Counted from the first letter of the stretch, positions 13,010 through 53,319 are shown. The stretch: DNA of 53,939 nt from Candidatus Dojkabacteria bacterium (GCA_025993875.1 JAMQHH010000009.1:1-53939), one strand, 5' to 3'. Program-made: numbers and translations. Notes: generated by a model not told the origin, from the letters alone.

Positions 13010-14767
13010 CTAAAACGAATAGCACCGCCAGCTTTGTGCCGGTGTCCCGCCGGATCCGCTTTGAATAGCAAAAGCATTACTTTTATTATAGGTTTGACTA
13101 CAAATATCATCGTAATCCTCAATACTCAGTTCGTAATGGCCGGGGTTATCACAGTACCAGTGATCAGAGTTACTTGTTGTTCTACCATATCCTTTTTGTG
13201 TGCAAAAGCCTTCCACCTGAAAATTACCATTACTCATAACAGCACCGTTAGAAAGTCCCGTTCCGTTTTGTAATAAATTTGCGCCCGGTGGAACGGAATC
13301 TCTATCTTCAACCGGTGGAGTTGGCTTTATAATTACAGTTGGTGTAGGGTTAACTGATCTGGCTGTAAAGTTTTTTACAAATCTGTCAAAATCCACAATA
13401 TCGGGTTTGGACTTATTGTTTTCGGCCATTGCTCCAAAACTATTACAACTTTTACTGCTCCATTCAGCAGGACAGCTTGATGTATAAGCCTGTGCAAAAT
13501 ACGAAAAATCTATTATATCTATTTTATTATTTCCATCGGTATCCATCGGACCACAAGGACCGCATCTTCCTCCGCCACCTCCTCCTGTTGTGCAAACCTT
13601 GGCAATAAAGTCTACTGTATTTATATTATCGTTCGAAGAATTAGTTACATATTTTCCTTGTTGATTACTGCAAGTGTTTACAGTATATCCTGTTCCTTCC
13701 GGCATTGTATTTGGTACACAGATGCCTGTTTGTTTTACTCCATTAGCTTCCACAAGACAAGAACTCTCCTTAAATGCACAGCTATAACCGCTAACACACA
13801 ATCCTAAATTTTCGTTACAAGCCTGTCCGCAAGTATTTGTTGCAGGAGCTACATTGGCTGTTTGGCACCTGCATCCTGCACCGCTCGTTAAAGTACATGT
13901 ACACCCTCCTTGATTGGAATTTACCTCTTTATTAAAACATTGCGCATCGGTAGTAGACGGATCGCTATTACATGTTGTTGGTGTTGTACTTCCTCCTCCT
14001 CCTCCGGTATTGCCCCCTCCTCCTGTGTTTCCTCCTCCTGAATTATCTCCCCCGCCGGTATTTCCACCTCCACCCGTATCGGAATCGCTTCCTCCTGTTA
14101 AACAGTTCCATCCCAGCCCAAGGGTACATGCATTAACATAGCCTCCAACAGTGTCTGGCCTATTATTTTTGTCCAGGTTAGGATGTTTTATAGTAACATC
14201 ATCTGCGTCAACATTTACATAAACCCATACTGAGTTCTTATCATCAGTGCCAATCGAACATTTATCAATTGATGAGTAAGTTATTTTTTTCCCGGATTTA
14301 ATAACTCCAATAATATTACTTGAGTCTTTTGCAGTAGTAGTTGAACGGATATTTATTTCTGTTGGAGCATCCGTTGAGCCTGATTCAAGCTTTTTGTCGC
14401 AAATTGTTTTCTTACATTGTACATCAGCCTTACAAAAATATGTACATGACAAGTCGTTTGTAGCGGGGGGGCATGATGTTGCATTAAAGCTTACATATGG
14501 TTTCTCGAATGCTTTACATTTAACCTGTCCACTGTTTGAACAAACAGCTGCCTTTATGGTTTTGTTAAGGCCACAATCTGCACCAGGGTCGTTATACGCA
14601 AGTTCACATTTAACAAGTTTGGGGTCGGCGCTACTATCTTCCGGAGCAATTGAGTTATTAGTTACAAAAAACGAAATTAGCCCAAGCAGAAAAAGAAGGG
14701 TTAACGCAACCAAAAGCTTTAATGCATTTGAGGAAATAAAAAAGATTTTTGGCCTTTTAATCTTCAT
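13010..14767 (-). CDS. Membrane-anchored Cys-rich surface protein with SH3-like segment, Gly-rich linker and dockerin/EF-hand-like module
   Basis: N-terminal TM followed by APEDSSA. INIRS..GVIKSG..WVYV is SH3b-like, there are GGGN(T/S) repeats, and DTDGNNKIDIIDF plus a second PDIVDF form a dockerin-like pair. Ends in a Cys/Trp domain. Confidence 0.7.
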   Translation of the reverse strand: MKIKRPKIFFISSNALKLLVALTLLFLLGLISFFVTNNSIAPEDSSADPKLVKCELAYNDPGADCGLNKTIKAAVCSNSGQVKCKAFEKPYVSFNATSCPPATNDLSCTYFCKADVQCKKTICDKKLESGSTDAPTEINIRSTTTAKDSSNIIGVIKSGKKITYSSIDKCSIGTDDKNSVWVYVNVDADDVTIKHPNLDKNNRPDTVGGYVNACTLGLGWNCLTGGSDSDTGGGGNTGGGDNSGGGNTGGGGNTGGGGGSTTPTTCNSDPSTTDAQCFNKEVNSNQGGCTCTLTSGAGCRCQTANVAPATNTCGQACNENLGLCVSGYSCAFKESSCLVEANGVKQTGICVPNTMPEGTGYTVNTCSNQQGKYVTNSSNDNINTVDFIAKVCTTGGGGGGRCGPCGPMDTDGNNKIDIIDFSYFAQAYTSSCPAEWSSKSCNSFGAMAENNKSKPDIVDFDRFVKNFTARSVNPTPTVIIKPTPPVEDRDSVPPGANLLQNGTGLSNGAVMSNGNFQVEGFCTQKGYGRTTSNSDHWYCDNPGHYELSIEDYDDICSQTYNKSNAFAIQSGSGGTPAQSWRCYSF

Positions 14768-14862
14768 AATAATTTACAATATTGGTAATAATATATCACG
14801 ATGTATTGCTGTTGAAAATAGAAAATGTGTAAAATGATAGGTAATTCAAAGCATGTCGGTCA

Positions 14863-15002
14863 TGTAGTGGTTCGAGAGCCTCACCACTACAATTCGAGAG
14901 CCCTCATTTATCCCGCCTTGGCGGGACCACTACAAAATGTGTTGTCCTGAGGGAACCAAAAATGTAGCCTTGAGGGAACTCCCTGTCTGCCGACAGGCAG
15001 GG
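14863..15002. repeat. REP-like GC-rich palindrome cluster, right
   Basis: Hairpin TGTAGTGGT-N11-ACCACTACA (14863..14891), TCCCGCCTTGGCGGGA (14911..14926), GCCTTGAGGGAACTC (14967..14981) and CCTGTCTGCCGACAGG (14982..14997). Confidence 0.7.
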
Positions 15003-15080
15003 AAAGGCGGCTTGACTTAAAAGTGTTCAGCAGCTATTTATTACTAGAACTGATTTGCAATCGGCTCTCTAAATACATAT

Positions 15081-15602
15081 TTAATCCTCTCTCTCCAGTT
15101 CCTCTGCAGTATATAGTTCCGATGGGTCGGGCACATATTTTAAAAACAAAATGCCGTCCAGATGGTCAACCTCGTGTTGAACAACATGCGAAAAATACCC
15201 TTTCGCTTCTAATACTTTTTCCTTTCCATCTTTATCAAAAAACTTTACTGTTATCTCACTTGCTCTTGCCACCTCTGCAAAAAGCCCTCCGTTGGAAACA
15301 CTTAAGCAGCCTTCCCAAAAAGTTGAAATCTCTGAACTTTTTTTTGTAATTACAGGGTTAATCATAACTTCCCAGATTATTTTTTTACTTTTATTCTCTT
15401 CTTCTAAATCCATTCTACGGCACAATGCAATTCTTTTATTATACCCTATTTGCGGCGCCGAAAGTCCACCGCTATGGTCCTTTACGGTTTCGACCGTTTC
15501 GAGTAATTCTTTAATAATTTTTTGTGTTTCTTTAGAATTGATATCAGCCAAAACCGATGGTGTTGTAAGGATTTTATTTCCAAATTGAAGTATTTTTTTC
15601 AT
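15081..15602 (-). CDS. def: Peptide deformylase
   Basis: GGLSAPQIG, EGCLS and QHEVDHLDG. Start placed at ATG 15602. Confidence 0.95.
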   Translation of the reverse strand: MKKILQFGNKILTTPSVLADINSKETQKIIKELLETVETVKDHSGGLSAPQIGYNKRIALCRRMDLEEENKSKKIIWEVMINPVITKKSSEISTFWEGCLSVSNGGLFAEVARASEITVKFFDKDGKEKVLEAKGYFSHVVQHEVDHLDGILFLKYVPDPSELYTAEELERED

Positions 15603-15608
15603 TCCCAA

Positions 15609-15617
15609 ATTATACCA
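15609..15617 (-). promoter_or_regulatory. Extended -10 promoter of def (likely leaderless mRNA)
   Basis: TGGTATAAT on the minus strand, with 6 nt between it and the ATG. Confidence 0.5.
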
Positions 15618-15738
15618 TAATTTAACCCTTCTCCTTCGTTATAAAAAATACCCAAATGGGTCTTTTTTTTATCAAAAGAATCAAAGTACCGTTAAAATAT
15701 AGTGCTATAATTAATATATCTATAGCACCAAAACATTA

Positions 15739-16248
15739 ATGAGAGACAAAATCGGTATTTTTTTTATAATTGCGGGAATAATTCTTATTGTTTTCTCCTT
15801 TTTAAGGTTCGATCCTTATTTCGGTAACACTTTAACACCCTCAGTAAGCTTTCCTGTATCGGTTCCCGTTATCAATGTAGTCACACCTGTTCCTACAGGG
15901 AGAATTACCCCCGAAGCTGTCTCCACGCAAAGAGAAGAGCCTGAAGAATTTACTGGTGTTTTACTTTACGGATTAAGCCAAAGTGGCTACCTAAAATCAC
16001 AAGAAAACCAAAAAACTATTTTAGAAACCGGTAAATGGAAAGCAACCGACTATTCTGTAAACGATCTAACTGGGAAAGAATACACTGTTCAACTTGGAGA
16101 TACATTATGGGAAATTTCGGAGGGATTTTACGGAACAGGAACAAAATGGGGCGAGATACTTAGTGCTAATTTAGGAAAAATAGGGTTTTTGCCAAATGGT
16201 GAACAAGCATTAATTTACCCGGGGCAAATATTAACATTAAACAAATAA
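15739..16248 (+). CDS. Membrane-anchored LysM-domain protein
   Basis: N-terminal TM; C-terminal YTVQLGDTLWEISEGFYG...LIYPGQILTL. Extended -10 TGCTATAAT at 15703..15711. Confidence 0.85.
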   Translation: MRDKIGIFFIIAGIILIVFSFLRFDPYFGNTLTPSVSFPVSVPVINVVTPVPTGRITPEAVSTQREEPEEFTGVLLYGLSQSGYLKSQENQKTILETGKWKATDYSVNDLTGKEYTVQLGDTLWEISEGFYGTGTKWGEILSANLGKIGFLPNGEQALIYPGQILTLNK

Positions 16249-17697
16249 TTATTCTTTATCCTTAAACTTTTTATTCCACCTTTTTTCACTTTTATTAAGA
16301 AGTTTTTCGGCACGCCTTTGTGATCTTTCTTTCGGAAGTTCTTTTATTTTTATTTTATAAAAACTAACCGAATTTACGACCTCGCCAAATGCCTTAACAA
16401 TGTTCCCTGCAAATAGCTGATATCGATATTCTACAATTCCTGCAATTATAAGTAAAAAGCCCAGTAAAACTATCCCGCTCTTTTCGTCGTCAAATAACCC
16501 TGTTTCGGGTAGCCCGCTTGGTGTTGGAGTTGATGCCGGCAAACACTGTTCAGAAGAGGTATTGCTTTGCAACCTACACCTTCCGTTAAAACAGATATGG
16601 CCCGATCCTGTACATAGTTTTGTAACTCCATCGCAAACTTCATTGCATCCCACGCTTGCTGAACATGATCCGCCCACGGCTGCAGCACACCCATTAGCTG
16701 TTGAGCTTGTTCCTGCCGGGCATGCCGTTCCCGTTACCACCAAAGGTTCGCAAGTATCTCCATCCGATTGTAAGTCGCTACATCTGTAGCATGTTATTAC
16801 ATTTGTGCAGGATCCTCCTGCAGCATTTGCACAACCATTTGAGCTTTCACTTGTGCCGGCAGGGCATGTAGAAGAATTCACTGTAAAGGCCTCGCATAAA
16901 TCGCTATCGTTTGTTGCCGTTGTACATCTGTAACATGTTTTTTGAACGGCGCATGCTCCGTTCGAACCTGTTTGTCCGCAAGATGATGAAGAGGAAACAT
17001 AACCTGCAGGGCAGCTTGTTCCGCTAAATGTTTCTGGTGTTGTACAGGTTGCACCATCTGTTAGGATATCAGTACATTTATGGCACGAAACAGTTTCTTC
17101 GACTACCGGGCAATCTCCGGAATACTGCGCACTGCCACCTGACCCAGTGTATCCCTGTCCACTGATAGTGTCTACTTGAACACATCTTCCGCATCCACTT
17201 CCTAAATTTCTTGGATCGTACGTCCCATTCCCCAAACTAATAGTGGTTTTATTGGCAGTTGTTGGTATACACTGCGAATCTGTGGTGCCAGCTGATACGT
17301 GTTTATAAAACAGTTCAAAAGAAACTGCAGAATCGCAGTTTGAAATAGTAAATGATCCTGTGTTAGATGCAAATTGCACTGAACAGCCTGTTACAGTAGG
17401 AGGAGGTGCTATTGCATTTAAAGGCTGGACATAACATTCTTTAATTGATCCACACGCAGTGCTATCTCTAACCTGCCATGTTCCACTACAGCCCCCAGCT
17501 AAAGCTCCTACAGGGCAAGTCCCTGGATTTGATGCATTTCCTGGATTAGCACAAAAAGATCCGCATGCATTTGCACTGGAGTCTTCGGGTGCTTGATCCT
17601 GAGTTATTCTTATCCCAATTACAACCGCAACCGCACCAAGTACTAGGGTTAGTACTGCAACAAAGACTAAAAAAATCCTGCGAGATCTACTTTTCAT
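16249..17697 (-). CDS. Cys-rich surface protein with three ~45 aa repeats and an LPXTG-like C-terminal sorting signal
   Basis: N-terminal TM plus APEDSSA, three CxxC...C...CPAG...C...C repeats (16663..17085), then LPETG (16498..16512), a hydrophobic segment and a basic tail. Confidence 0.75.
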   Translation of the reverse strand: MKSRSRRIFLVFVAVLTLVLGAVAVVIGIRITQDQAPEDSSANACGSFCANPGNASNPGTCPVGALAGGCSGTWQVRDSTACGSIKECYVQPLNAIAPPPTVTGCSVQFASNTGSFTISNCDSAVSFELFYKHVSAGTTDSQCIPTTANKTTISLGNGTYDPRNLGSGCGRCVQVDTISGQGYTGSGGSAQYSGDCPVVEETVSCHKCTDILTDGATCTTPETFSGTSCPAGYVSSSSSCGQTGSNGACAVQKTCYRCTTATNDSDLCEAFTVNSSTCPAGTSESSNGCANAAGGSCTNVITCYRCSDLQSDGDTCEPLVVTGTACPAGTSSTANGCAAAVGGSCSASVGCNEVCDGVTKLCTGSGHICFNGRCRLQSNTSSEQCLPASTPTPSGLPETGLFDDEKSGIVLLGFLLIIAGIVEYRYQLFAGNIVKAFGEVVNSVSFYKIKIKELPKERSQRRAEKLLNKSEKRWNKKFKDKE

Positions 17698-50203: not shown

Positions 50204-50800
50204 GTGAAAAAATTTTTAAAAAGCTTTGTGCTGTTTCTTTTTATAGTTTTCTTCTTGCCAAAAAGTTCCGTGCACGCAATAAGTATAACACCTTCCAGCG
50301 GTAACATACAGCCCGGGTATAATCTAAACATAAACGTTGTAGCATCGGGTGTTCCAAGTGACTCCTCTACCATGCAACTAAATTTATCGGCAATTGGAAG
50401 CTGCACCATTACAAGTTATGCACCTCCAAGTGGTGGAACCTGGGGTTTATCTATACCGTTATGTGCCGGTGGAGCTTCTTTTACTGCGAGTTCGGTATGT
50501 ATAGCTTTATCTAAAACATCGCCTAATCTTATTTTAAATGGTGAGTCTCTTGGAACAATGGTTGTTAATTGCTCTACGGCAGGGTCGTTAGTTGTATCTT
50601 CTACTTCAGGATCGGGTTATGTATCGGGAGGGACATTACAAGAACGCGTAGGTACATTGGGTACTTTTTCTGTATCGGGCAGTATTCCCAATACCGCATT
50701 ATCCTTTACTGATGTTTTCTCTTTACTTGGAATATTCTCACTAATATTTGGAATATTTTTGTTTATAACTGTTAAAAGAGAAAGAAATAATAAATTTTAA
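50204..50800 (+). CDS. Secreted cohesin-like protein with IPNTA sorting-like signal
   Basis: Signal peptide, beta-sandwich starting ISITPSSGNI..NINVV, then IPNTA (50684..50698), a TM and the KRERNNKF tail. Confidence 0.6.
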   Translation: MKKFLKSFVLFLFIVFFLPKSSVHAISITPSSGNIQPGYNLNINVVASGVPSDSSTMQLNLSAIGSCTITSYAPPSGGTWGLSIPLCAGGASFTASSVCIALSKTSPNLILNGESLGTMVVNCSTAGSLVVSSTSGSGYVSGGTLQERVGTLGTFSVSGSIPNTALSFTDVFSLLGIFSLIFGIFLFITVKRERNNKF

Positions 50801-50809
50801 AAATATACA

Positions 50810-51367
50810 ATGAAAAAAATTTTTTTAGTAACGGTAATGCTTGTAGTAATTTTTGTTGTCGGTGGTGCTGTACTAGCTTTAATTTTAAACAGCTTAAATG
50901 CACCTACAAATACAACAGATTCTACAACAAATACAAGTAACAACGATTCTACAACACCAACAACCACTGTTACAGAAAAAAGAAGAGCCGAAGTCGCACT
51001 ACAAGAAAATCTATCGGGCGATTACGATCTAGTTATCTATAACGACAACCTAGAGGTTCTTGATTTTCAATTGCTTTTTTATACTAACAATCAGTTTGAG
51101 CAGTTTATTGTTAATCCTGTTTTTGATGTAACTTTGTTAAACGAAATTAACACCGATGGCAGTGTAAGTATTGCCTTTGGAAAGCTTGCAAACAGAGAAA
51201 AACTTAATCTTCTAAAAACCGAAGATAACGGGTTTATTTTAGGCTCCTTTAAATTAAAAGCCGAAGCAAGCGGGGAGGTTACCCTTGGCGGAGGTGATGA
51301 GGAAAATATAATTAATGATGCAGAGGGAAGCAGGTTAGTGAAACCTTTTGTTGCAACTGTACCTTGA
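50810..51367 (+). CDS. Membrane-anchored protein with Thr-rich linker and cohesin-like beta domain
   Basis: N-terminal TM, T/N-rich linker, and DFQLLF..VSIAFG..LGSFKLKA. Confidence 0.55.
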   Translation: MKKIFLVTVMLVVIFVVGGAVLALILNSLNAPTNTTDSTTNTSNNDSTTPTTTVTEKRRAEVALQENLSGDYDLVIYNDNLEVLDFQLLFYTNNQFEQFIVNPVFDVTLLNEINTDGSVSIAFGKLANREKLNLLKTEDNGFILGSFKLKAEASGEVTLGGGDEENIINDAEGSRLVKPFVATVP

Positions 51368-52041: not shown

Positions 52042-53319
52042 ATGCAAAAAATAATTTATATTCTATCTGCTATTTTCTTTATATTGGTATTCAATCTAAA
52101 AATTTCTACAGCAGTAAATGCAGATTCGCAGTCTCTTTTTATTTCGGAATTTATGCCCGACCCGTCAGGATCCGATTCTGCATATGAATGGATAGAATTG
52201 TACAATGCAGGTAGAGCCTCGGTAAACACAGCCGGATATAAGATTAACAATATATCTATTCCGGAATTTCTTTTAGAGCCGCAGCAATTTTTAATTCTGG
52301 CAAGAGATACAGCATCTTTAACAAGCCTTTACCCGCAAATTTTTGTAGTTGAACTTTCCTTTTCGCTTGCTAATTCGGGTGGAGAAATTTTATTAACCAG
52401 CGAAAACTTTACCGATAAAATTACTTACCCAAAAGCTTTCGAAAATAAAAGTTTTGAAAGGCTAGGAGAACTATGCCATGGAGTAAGTATAAATACTAAC
52501 GGGAATACAATAGGTCAAATCAACTCTAACTATTTAGATTCCTGCTGGAGTAACCCCGAATCTTACCCTGTATCCGAGCCGGTAAGCTATCCAATATATT
52601 CTCCTCCAGTTTCGGAGCCTATCAGTTATTTTCCGGAAATATTTGAAGAAAAAGAAGTTTTTTATCTTTTAATATCTGAGGTATATCCATCTCCAATTTC
52701 GCAAAATGGGGAGAAGGAATGGGTCGAGATCTATAATCCATACAATAAAGAGATAGATTTTTCGGGATACTATATTGGAGATAAAAGTTATAAAGAACAA
52801 AAATCTAAAAGCAGATATATATTTACTGAAGCATTAATAGAGGAAAACTCTTATTTTATAATAGAATCTCCCCCATTTTCTTTGAATAATTCGGGCGATG
52901 AGCTATATTTATATTCACCCAATGGAACAGTTATTGATACTGTTTTTTATAATTCAATTACCAACGGGAGTTCGGCAATCAGAGACGAGAATATTTTATA
53001 TAATGGCGAAAAAATTGAACTAATAAAATCGAGTGCTCCTACAAAGGGTTTTATTAATAGTATGATCGCTATAACCAGTAATGAGAAGAAAACCGAGACT
53101 AAAACAGAGGCAAAAACTGATGAAAAACAAACAGCCGGTGCCACTTTGGGATATAAAATAAACTATCCAGTTGTAAAGCCAATGGTGTATTGGGAAAATT
53201 TTGTTTTATACAGGCATAAAATTAATCTTGGAGCATTGGTGCTATTAGTTGTTACAATAATTTATTCTATAATTTTATTGTTAAAAAGATACAAAAAGAC
53301 AGATGAAAAATACTTTTAA
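52042..53319 (+). CDS. Double lamin-tail-domain (LTD) surface protein with C-terminal TM
   Basis: ISEFMPDP..EWIELYN and ISEVYPSP..EWVEIYN, each with L.NSG.E..L, and a Pro-rich YPVSEPVSY linker. Confidence 0.82.
   Translation: MQKIIYILSAIFFILVFNLKISTAVNADSQSLFISEFMPDPSGSDSAYEWIELYNAGRASVNTAGYKINNISIPEFLLEPQQFLILARDTASLTSLYPQIFVVELSFSLANSGGEILLTSENFTDKITYPKAFENKSFERLGELCHGVSINTNGNTIGQINSNYLDSCWSNPESYPVSEPVSYPIYSPPVSEPISYFPEIFEEKEVFYLLISEVYPSPISQNGEKEWVEIYNPYNKEIDFSGYYIGDKSYKEQKSKSRYIFTEALIEENSYFIIESPPFSLNNSGDELYLYSPNGTVIDTVFYNSITNGSSAIRDENILYNGEKIELIKSSAPTKGFINSMIAITSNEKKTETKTEAKTDEKQTAGATLGYKINYPVVKPMVYWENFVLYRHKINLGALVLLVVTIIYSIILLLKRYKKTDEKYF

Follow-up and report, generated by a model that had tools for sequence, protein, structure and literature searches.

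Two genes on the minus strand of a Candidatus Dojkabacteria contig (GCA_025993875.1, JAMQHH010000009.1:1-53939), referred to as open reading frames (ORFs) A and B, encode Cys-rich proteins that share the heptapeptide APEDSSA close to the N-terminus. The whole 53,939-nucleotide stretch that was analysed is called the window, and the genome comprises 40 contigs (0.93 Mb, 34% G+C, 96% complete). The main features of the two genes were as follows.

13010..14767, minus strand: ORF A, a secreted orphan of 585 residues, with 34 Cys in a mature part of 538 residues and a Gly/Asn-rich linker
14627..14767, minus strand: leader of ORF A, residues 1-47, comprising MKIKRPK, an apolar stretch and then TNNSIAPEDSSA
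14627..14647, minus strand: first APEDSSA copy, A41-A47 of ORF A, at -7 to -1 relative to a predicted signal peptidase I cut
16249..17697, minus strand: ORF B, a Cys-rich surface protein of 482 residues, with 36 Cys in a mature part of 440 residues
17572..17697, minus strand: leader of ORF B, residues 1-42, comprising MKSRSRR, 22 apolar residues and then RITQDQAPEDSSA
17572..17592, minus strand: second APEDSSA copy, A36-A42 of ORF B
16252..16512, minus strand: C-terminal sorting signal of ORF B, with LPETG at 16498..16512, a helix at 16432..16476 and a long basic tail

The original prediction had described APEDSSA as an invariant motif of two surface proteins. Both copies are real, but the strand given for them was not the coding one: the plus strand translates at these positions as GATIFRS and CTGVFGC, so the motif is encoded on the minus strand. 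As had been described, it stands shortly past an N-terminal helix, ~10-13 residues after the hydrophobic stretch in both proteins. The N-terminus reads MKIKRPK...LLVALTLLFLLGLISFFV-TNNSI-APEDSSA in ORF A and MKSRSRR-IFLVFVAVLTLVLGAVAVVIGI-RITQDQ-APEDSSA in ORF B, in each case with a basic start followed by the hydrophobic helix. The codons mostly differ (six of seven, the first Ser being AGT in one copy and TCC in the other), and 13 of the 21 bases are identical. APEDSSA would be expected 0.0006 times in this proteome, and the chance of any exact 7-mer being common to ORFs A and B was ~0.001. The mature parts were likewise correctly described as unrelated, since BLASTP aligned the leaders only (27 bits, E 0.001) and returned Cys-rich noise elsewhere.

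The description of two proteins was accurate for the pair but too narrow, as the motif is the tail of a ~42-residue leader found on many proteins. Of the 14 DSSA occurrences in this genome, counted over all ORFs with 80 or more residues, six lie at residues 38-46, 7-12 residues past an N-terminal helix. The motif is thus not confined to two recent paralogues: the genome has six carriers, with more across the class. Besides ORFs A and B, the carriers were:

a paralogue of ORF B, with QAPDDSSA and LPATG
a 280-residue repeat protein, with VTDSSA
a 247-residue dockerin protein, with SPADSSA
a 342-residue trypsin-family protease with a dockerin, with SKDSSA-IVGG

A 12-position matrix trained on leaders of other genomes only placed five of the six post-helix DSSA sites at ranks 1-5 of 310,000 genome positions, the next scores belonging to random internal sites. 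The leader of ORF B had the best score in the genome (35.3) and that of ORF A ranked third (23.5); against the leader profile they gave E values of 4e-15 and 3e-7, respectively. Among the dockerin-like proteins of this genome, four of six have the leader.

A first leader profile, built from eight sequences, had matches in 40 of 41 related genomes, and translation of 70 loci gave 66 leaders ending in the same motif. The class concerned is Dojkabacteria, a lineage of ultra-small bacteria within the Patescibacteria. With a refined profile of 35 positions, motif-bearing leaders were found in 76 of its 201 genomes, which represent 52 of 106 genera, on one to eight proteins per genome. By family, the leader was strong in ~12 and missing from four, with weak matches in the one whose genomes are smallest. 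No motif-bearing leader was found in ~280 genomes of other Patescibacteria classes within a sample of 301 spread evenly over the phylum, where profile matches consisted of the helix alone or lacked the final Ala. The phylum-wide search that had been proposed therefore supports a lineage-specific processing signal, present in about half of the class genera and in no other class sampled. Among 1.84 billion cluster representatives, 125 proteins of 72-1072 residues matched at E<=0.001, all at residues 5-56. The exact APEDSSA wording is rare, and an exact-word search with the ORF B leader returned two near-orthologues only; the breadth of the leader is therefore visible only by degenerate profile. 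A full-text literature search found no account of an APEDSSA-type leader.

The leader has a median length of 42 residues, with a median apolar run of 22 (range 19-25) and a polar spacer of ~12 residues. Its consensus, anchored on the final Ala, reads [IL]-[RQ]-[LI]-Q-Q-[DNS]-Q-A-P-[DE]-D-[ST]-S-A/[AS], where the slash marks the predicted cut. Most of 119 leaders have R/K at -37/-36, often as R-K. In the global set of 122 carriers, -1 is Ala in 120 and -3 is small (S73, T29, A12, G4, V2), while -2 is free, with nine or more types represented (S, A, E, N, Q, D, G, L, R and K). Of the 122, 112 have Pro at -6 and 99 have Asp at -4, and +1 is A, S, G or D and never Pro. The 66 leaders of relatives show the same pattern at -3 to -1, likewise with Pro at -6 and none at +1. 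Information content, 4.2 bits at -1, is no more than ~1 bit at +2 and beyond. Anchoring on Ala favours Ala at -1, so the register was also fixed by P-x-D alone, which still gave Ala at -1 in 34 of 37 sequences. Regex anchoring, which had set the cut at Q-D-Q-A/P in many sequences, was rejected and replaced by an iterated matrix with this P-x-D check.

Signal peptidase I accommodates the side chains at -1 and -3 in its S1 and S3 pockets, and Pro at +1 blocks cleavage by this enzyme. The combination of small residues fixed at -3 and -1 and an unconstrained -2 matches the signal peptidase I rule, and since Q-x-Q-A/P is excluded by its Pro at +1, S-S-A is the sole compatible site. This is in line with the first option that had been listed for the motif, a signal peptidase I cut after the final S-A, which also fits the loss of conservation past -1. 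We regard it as likely that APEDSSA forms the c-region of a Sec signal peptide and that the housekeeping signal peptidase I cleaves this peptide past its last Ala. The cut is predicted past Ala47 in ORF A, between 14627 and 14626, and past Ala42 in ORF B, between 17572 and 17571, where the junction would read ITQDQAPEDSSA-NACGS with a putative cut between Ala and Asn. The leader peptide ITQDQAPEDSSANACGS is a putative signal peptidase I substrate.

The S1 proteases among the carriers provide an independent, though indirect, marker for the mature end. Seven leader proteins from six genomes belong to this family, and in all seven the motif directly precedes [ILV]-[FVY]-G-G (IVGG, LFGG in four, IFGG and LYGG), which also fits a cut after S-A. 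In the leader protease of this genome (Pfam Trypsin, E 2.6e-19), V48 is matched in the alignment to residue 2 of mature porcine elastase 1 (1bru), placing I47 at residue 1, position 16 in chymotrypsin numbering. The S1 fold needs residue 16 as a free N-terminus to form its active site. As this residue adjoins the motif, a cut after D-S-S-A would directly yield an active enzyme. The proteases of this group terminate in a dockerin or a C-terminal helix, and the protein at G000:C17:14768-14902 (minus strand) and its orthologues L015, L017, L029, L059, L061 and L065 have Gly, not Asp, at counted position 189.

These proteases also bear on the alternative that the helix stays in place as an uncleaved signal anchor, in which case APEDSSA would be a juxtamembrane stalk motif in proteins tethered by their N-termini. 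Although a run of 19-25 apolar residues is long enough to cross the membrane and the distance to the site is unusually large, the seven proteases that start right after the motif need a free N-terminus at residue 16. Moreover, a sortase signal or helix is present at the C-terminus in over half of the carriers, which would then be tethered at both ends, and a free -2 between fixed -3 and -1 is the pattern of a protease pocket, not of a stalk. An uncleaved anchor is therefore very unlikely. The original prediction had also suggested a glycosylation site, and acidic residues followed by Ser-Ser, with N-S-S in a few variants, would suit such a site or another modification. However, the motif lies in the part of the leader that is predicted to be removed, Asn is rare in it, and the D-S-S of both window proteins misfits D-[ST]-[AILMTV], the O-glycosylation sequon of Bacteroidota. 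A modification site is thus exceedingly improbable.

The candidate processing enzyme is encoded in the window but is unlinked to ORFs A and B, lying 17 kb off, and a second signal peptidase gene is present elsewhere in the genome:

34550..35170, minus strand: signal peptidase I, LepB-type, family S26 (TIGR02227 141 bits; PF10502 E 4.5e-37)
C7:18674-19183: second signal peptidase I of the genome (TIGR02227 above cut-off)

TIGR02227 genes number one to five per genome and occur in all 41 relatives. It had been suggested that a dedicated peptidase might be co-distributed with the motif, and such an enzyme could be a second paralogue of signal peptidase, the S1 protease that itself bears the leader, or another enzyme. 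Most genomes have at least two S26 genes, the leader has S/T at -3 where ordinary signal peptides have V/A/I/L, and in two genera a lower-scoring paralogue lies 8-9 kb from leader-gene clusters. The second signal peptidase does not track the leader, however: genomes with a single S26 gene, among them G004, G026, G027 and G037 (single contig), still carry it, and no peptidase gene adjoins ORF A or B. A co-distributed second signal peptidase was accordingly rejected, and the probability that any dedicated peptidase serves the leader is very low. The paralogues close to leader clusters (G018:C2:345241-345747, G022:C11:9156-9650, G006:C5:9529-10026, G019:C2:80680-81195 and G011:C2:16134-16646) may reflect conserved synteny only.

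Other export routes and signal-peptide classes were also considered. A dedicated route through twin-arginine translocation (Tat), a further reading of the suggested export signal, is not supported: no TatC was found in this 96% complete genome, where the only match scored 15 bits and contained stops. The S-R-R-I-F-L of ORF B, which resembles the Tat motif S/T-R-R-x-F-L-K, was attributed to chance, the family consensus being R-K. Models of YSIRK-G/S, KxYKxGKxW and SipW-cognate signals gave no match, and an NCBIfam search of the six carriers at E<=0.01 returned a weak dockerin_GC alone. The lipoprotein lipobox L-[ASTVI]-[GAS]-C was rejected, as -3 is S/T rather than L/V/I and Cys at +1 is rare. 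A type IV pilin-like signal G/F-T-L-[IL]-E is absent from the leaders; the genuine pilin-like proteins on C18 read GFTLIE and GFTLLE.

As a control for ordinary signal peptides, homologues of a secreted lamin-tail-domain protein of the window were compared.

52042..53319, plus strand: secreted lamin-tail-domain protein with two PF00932 domains (E 1e-29)

Homologues of this protein occur in most genomes of the family. In 14 related genomes, they have signal peptides of 20-30 residues that share only [VAIL]-x-A and end in AVNA/D, KVRA/E, IIKA/Q, KVQA/Q, AAYA/Q, KLYA/Q, TVNA/D, KLNA/Q, KVKA/T and KAEA/S. Their mature N-terminus is strongly conserved, reading I-S/N-E-F-x-P-D-P-x-G-x-D-S-G-K-E-W. 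This drifting signal peptide in front of a conserved mature start is the reverse of the leader pattern, and two signal-peptide classes thus coexist in these genomes. Since these genomes also use ordinary [VA]-x-A signal peptides, the peptidases do not need Q-A-P-D-D, and the conservation at -12 to -4 is a real extra constraint.

The leader marks surface-displayed proteins of several unrelated kinds. In the global set, Cys exceeded 4% of the mature part in 85 of 122 carriers, and 71 of 122 had a sortase-type end, [LI]-P-x-T-[GA] followed by a helix. Pfam identified DUF4215 (8), DUF11 (7), DUF7927 (5), cohesin (2) and trypsin (1), the others having no match. Single-linkage clustering of the mature parts merged 131 of 185 through shared repeats, linkers and anchors and was therefore unfit for counting cargo families, so Pfam content was used. 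About 30 of the carriers form a family of ~230 residues, here called SGFG (L016, L018, L023, L025, L044, L047, L056, L063 and ~20 library proteins, e.g. P0018, P0019 and P0023). Its mature part starts with [AS]-G-F-G-x-x-A-[TV], has ~2% Cys and no Pfam match, and its genes often adjoin a gene for a large Cys-rich carrier. Leader variants track cargo, with QQNL.xDDSSA on the proteases and QQNNAA.DANA on the SGFG family.

This tracking could be expected if the leader were ancestral and had spread by tandem duplication and domain shuffling, with the motif contributing nothing more than any signal peptide does. Carriers are indeed often in tandem, as at G036:C1 120-124 kb, G027:C55, G012:C10 and ORFs A and B, and because the variants also follow cargo families, descent explains part of the similarity. 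However, the peptide is unchanged despite synonymous divergence, and the leader is conserved across families of the class while the adjoining mature N-termini cannot be aligned. At equal phylogenetic depth, moreover, the ordinary signal peptides of homologues have drifted except at -3 and -1. The differing codons and the retention of the motif across families on unrelated cargo indicate that selection acts on the peptide, and the synonymous divergence together with the contrast to ordinary signal peptides indicates that selection maintains it. Descent alone is thus an unlikely explanation.

A more specific role for the extra conservation would be that of an address tag within Sec. As in YSIRK-G/S proteins, the leader would be cleaved by signal peptidase I but would route a set of surface proteins to a particular place or time, for example the septum or a host-contact site, with the helix face and Q-x-Q-A-P-D-D as the signal. 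Conservation exceeds the needs of cleavage, the one to eight users per genome stand beside many ordinary signal peptides, and besides the 71 of 122 carriers with a sortase-type end there are others with dockerin, cohesin or DUF11. Against this reading, the variation with cargo fits plain vertical descent, the postulated partner protein is hypothetical, and the sortase shows no corresponding distribution: it is present in 201 of 201 class genomes, whereas the leader is present in 76, and its universality makes co-distribution uninformative. Furthermore, sortase-type substrates with ordinary signal peptides occur here, which implies that these substrates do not need the long leader. The features concerned were:

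C7:10810-11235: sortase, the one in the genome (PF04203, 77.6 bits)
50204..50800, plus strand: protein of 198 residues with an ordinary signal peptide, PKSSVHA/ISIT, ending in IPNTA, a helix and KRERNNKF

We consider such routing possible but doubtful. With similar reserve, it can be proposed that the helix face (L..L-T..L.G) and Q-x-Q-A-P-D-D are read by a hypothetical membrane factor, as a candidate phyla radiation (CPR) counterpart of YSIRK-G/S. Such a factor would direct a small surface-display regulon, made up of sortase substrates, S1 proteases and proteins with dockerin or cohesin, to a defined secretion site such as the host-contact zone, or would delay release until folding and disulfide formation were complete.

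Taken with the cargo and the controls, the Dojkabacteria leader is most likely a lineage-specific, sequence-conserved form of ordinary signal peptide, not a new export system. From its anatomy and from the LepB-type peptidase of the genome we infer both the cleavage and the enzyme. In the proposed mechanism, the leader would insert N-in via Sec, probably through the signal recognition particle because the helix is long, and the ordinary type I signal peptidase would recognise Ser/Thr at -3 and Ala at -1 and cut past the latter, which is invariant. The released passenger might then be fixed to the wall by sortase, docked via dockerin and cohesin, or held by a C-terminal helix. The segment from -12 to -4 (Q..Q-A-P-D/E-D) might, as a guess, serve to present the site beyond a full-length helix or to set the timing of release; YSIRK-like targeting is a third possible cause of its conservation.

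Several points weigh against cleavage by the housekeeping enzyme as the full account. The cleaved N-terminus is a prediction from sequence. The apolar stretch has the length of a membrane helix and the site lies ~12 residues past it, beyond a typical c-region, so that cleavage might not occur in some members. The conservation of Q-A-P-D-D is not accounted for by plain cleavage, as ordinary [VA]-x-A peptides suffice. Finally, all leader sets were gathered with leader profiles, which inflates apparent conservation, chiefly in the helix; because the selecting profile itself contains the helix, helix conservation was not used as evidence.

In database sequence searches, ORF A had no Pfam, NCBIfam or PDB match and ORF B no Pfam or PDB match. 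The sole homologue of ORF A is one orthologue with 80% identity, which retains APEDSSADPKLVKCEL. ORF B has three C-[YH]-[RK]-C-[TS] repeats in addition to its sortase-type C-terminal anchor; its homologues carry the same repeat, and one bears the name Candidatus Dojkabacteria. The sortase-type signals of ORF B (tail 16252..16431, minus strand) and of many relatives have unusually long basic tails of 40-60 residues, with a recurrent F-E-K-K or F-E-x-K-[VF] close to the end. The neighbours of the two genes are housekeeping genes, the order being CCA-adding enzyme, ORF A, def (peptide deformylase), a LysM protein, ORF B and DnaK; the LysM protein between ORFs A and B is membrane-anchored and lacks the motif. 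Further features of the window were:

13505..13543, minus strand: dockerin-like repeat of ORF A, DTDGNNKIDIIDF, under the Pfam threshold
13385..13408, minus strand: second dockerin-like repeat of ORF A, KPDIVDFD, under the Pfam threshold
50810..51367, plus strand: protein of 185 residues with a helix, then LNSLNAPTNTTDSTT, then a Thr/Asn-rich region; LNSLNAPTNTTDSTT resembles a decayed leader spacer without the final Ala

Compared with known systems, the leader shares with Sec type I signal peptides a basic n-region, an apolar h-region, Pro at -6 as a helix breaker, an unrestricted -2 between small residues at -3 and -1, the lack of Pro at +1 and the presence of a LepB-type peptidase gene. It differs in its length of ~42 residues, its helix of ~22 (longer than usual), its spacer of ~12 and the conservation of at least 11 leader positions on unrelated cargo across class families. 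Like YSIRK-G/S signals (TIGR01168), it has a conserved motif in a signal peptide of the cleaved kind and is found, beside ordinary signal peptides, on some surface proteins only, of which many are sortase substrates. Unlike them, its motif lies at the end of the c-region rather than at the n/h boundary, and it has neither YSIRK nor an NCBIfam match. SipW-cognate (TIGR04088) and KxYKxGKxW (TIGR03715) signals are likewise lineage-restricted classes with their own signature, but these are tied to a dedicated peptidase (SipW) or accessory Sec, respectively, whereas genomes with the leader have an ordinary LepB.

A leader of another class, found on the Pro/Thr-rich proteins L078 and L085 (G098:C1:32902-32985 and G071:C1:166279-166350), comprises a helix followed by A-[IV]-R-L-Y-x-L-R-Q-x-x-V-x-P-N-V-P-x-S-x-P-[KQ]-A-A. 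It resembles the APEDSSA-type leader in its full-length helix, polar spacer and small-x-Ala end but differs in spacer sequence, and each appears to be lineage-specific. The APEDSSA-type leader, in 52 of 106 class genera, was the most widespread of those measured. Each CPR class may have its own extended signal-peptide spacer.

Signal peptides are usually held to be exchangeable in sequence, whereas here a leader, and chiefly its last 12 residues, is kept on unrelated cargo. This points to an extra secretion constraint in single-membrane bacteria with long signal helices and a reduced apparatus. The leader can serve as a key for annotating the surface proteins of CPR bacteria: the 35-position profile picks out orphan, mostly Cys-rich surface proteins of uncultured organisms with almost no false positives, and yields likely mature N-termini for expression and structural work. 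If the constraint is one of presentation to the peptidase only, the profile is a useful annotation rule and no more; if the leader is an address tag, the profile would directly list the host-interaction surface proteins of these episymbionts.

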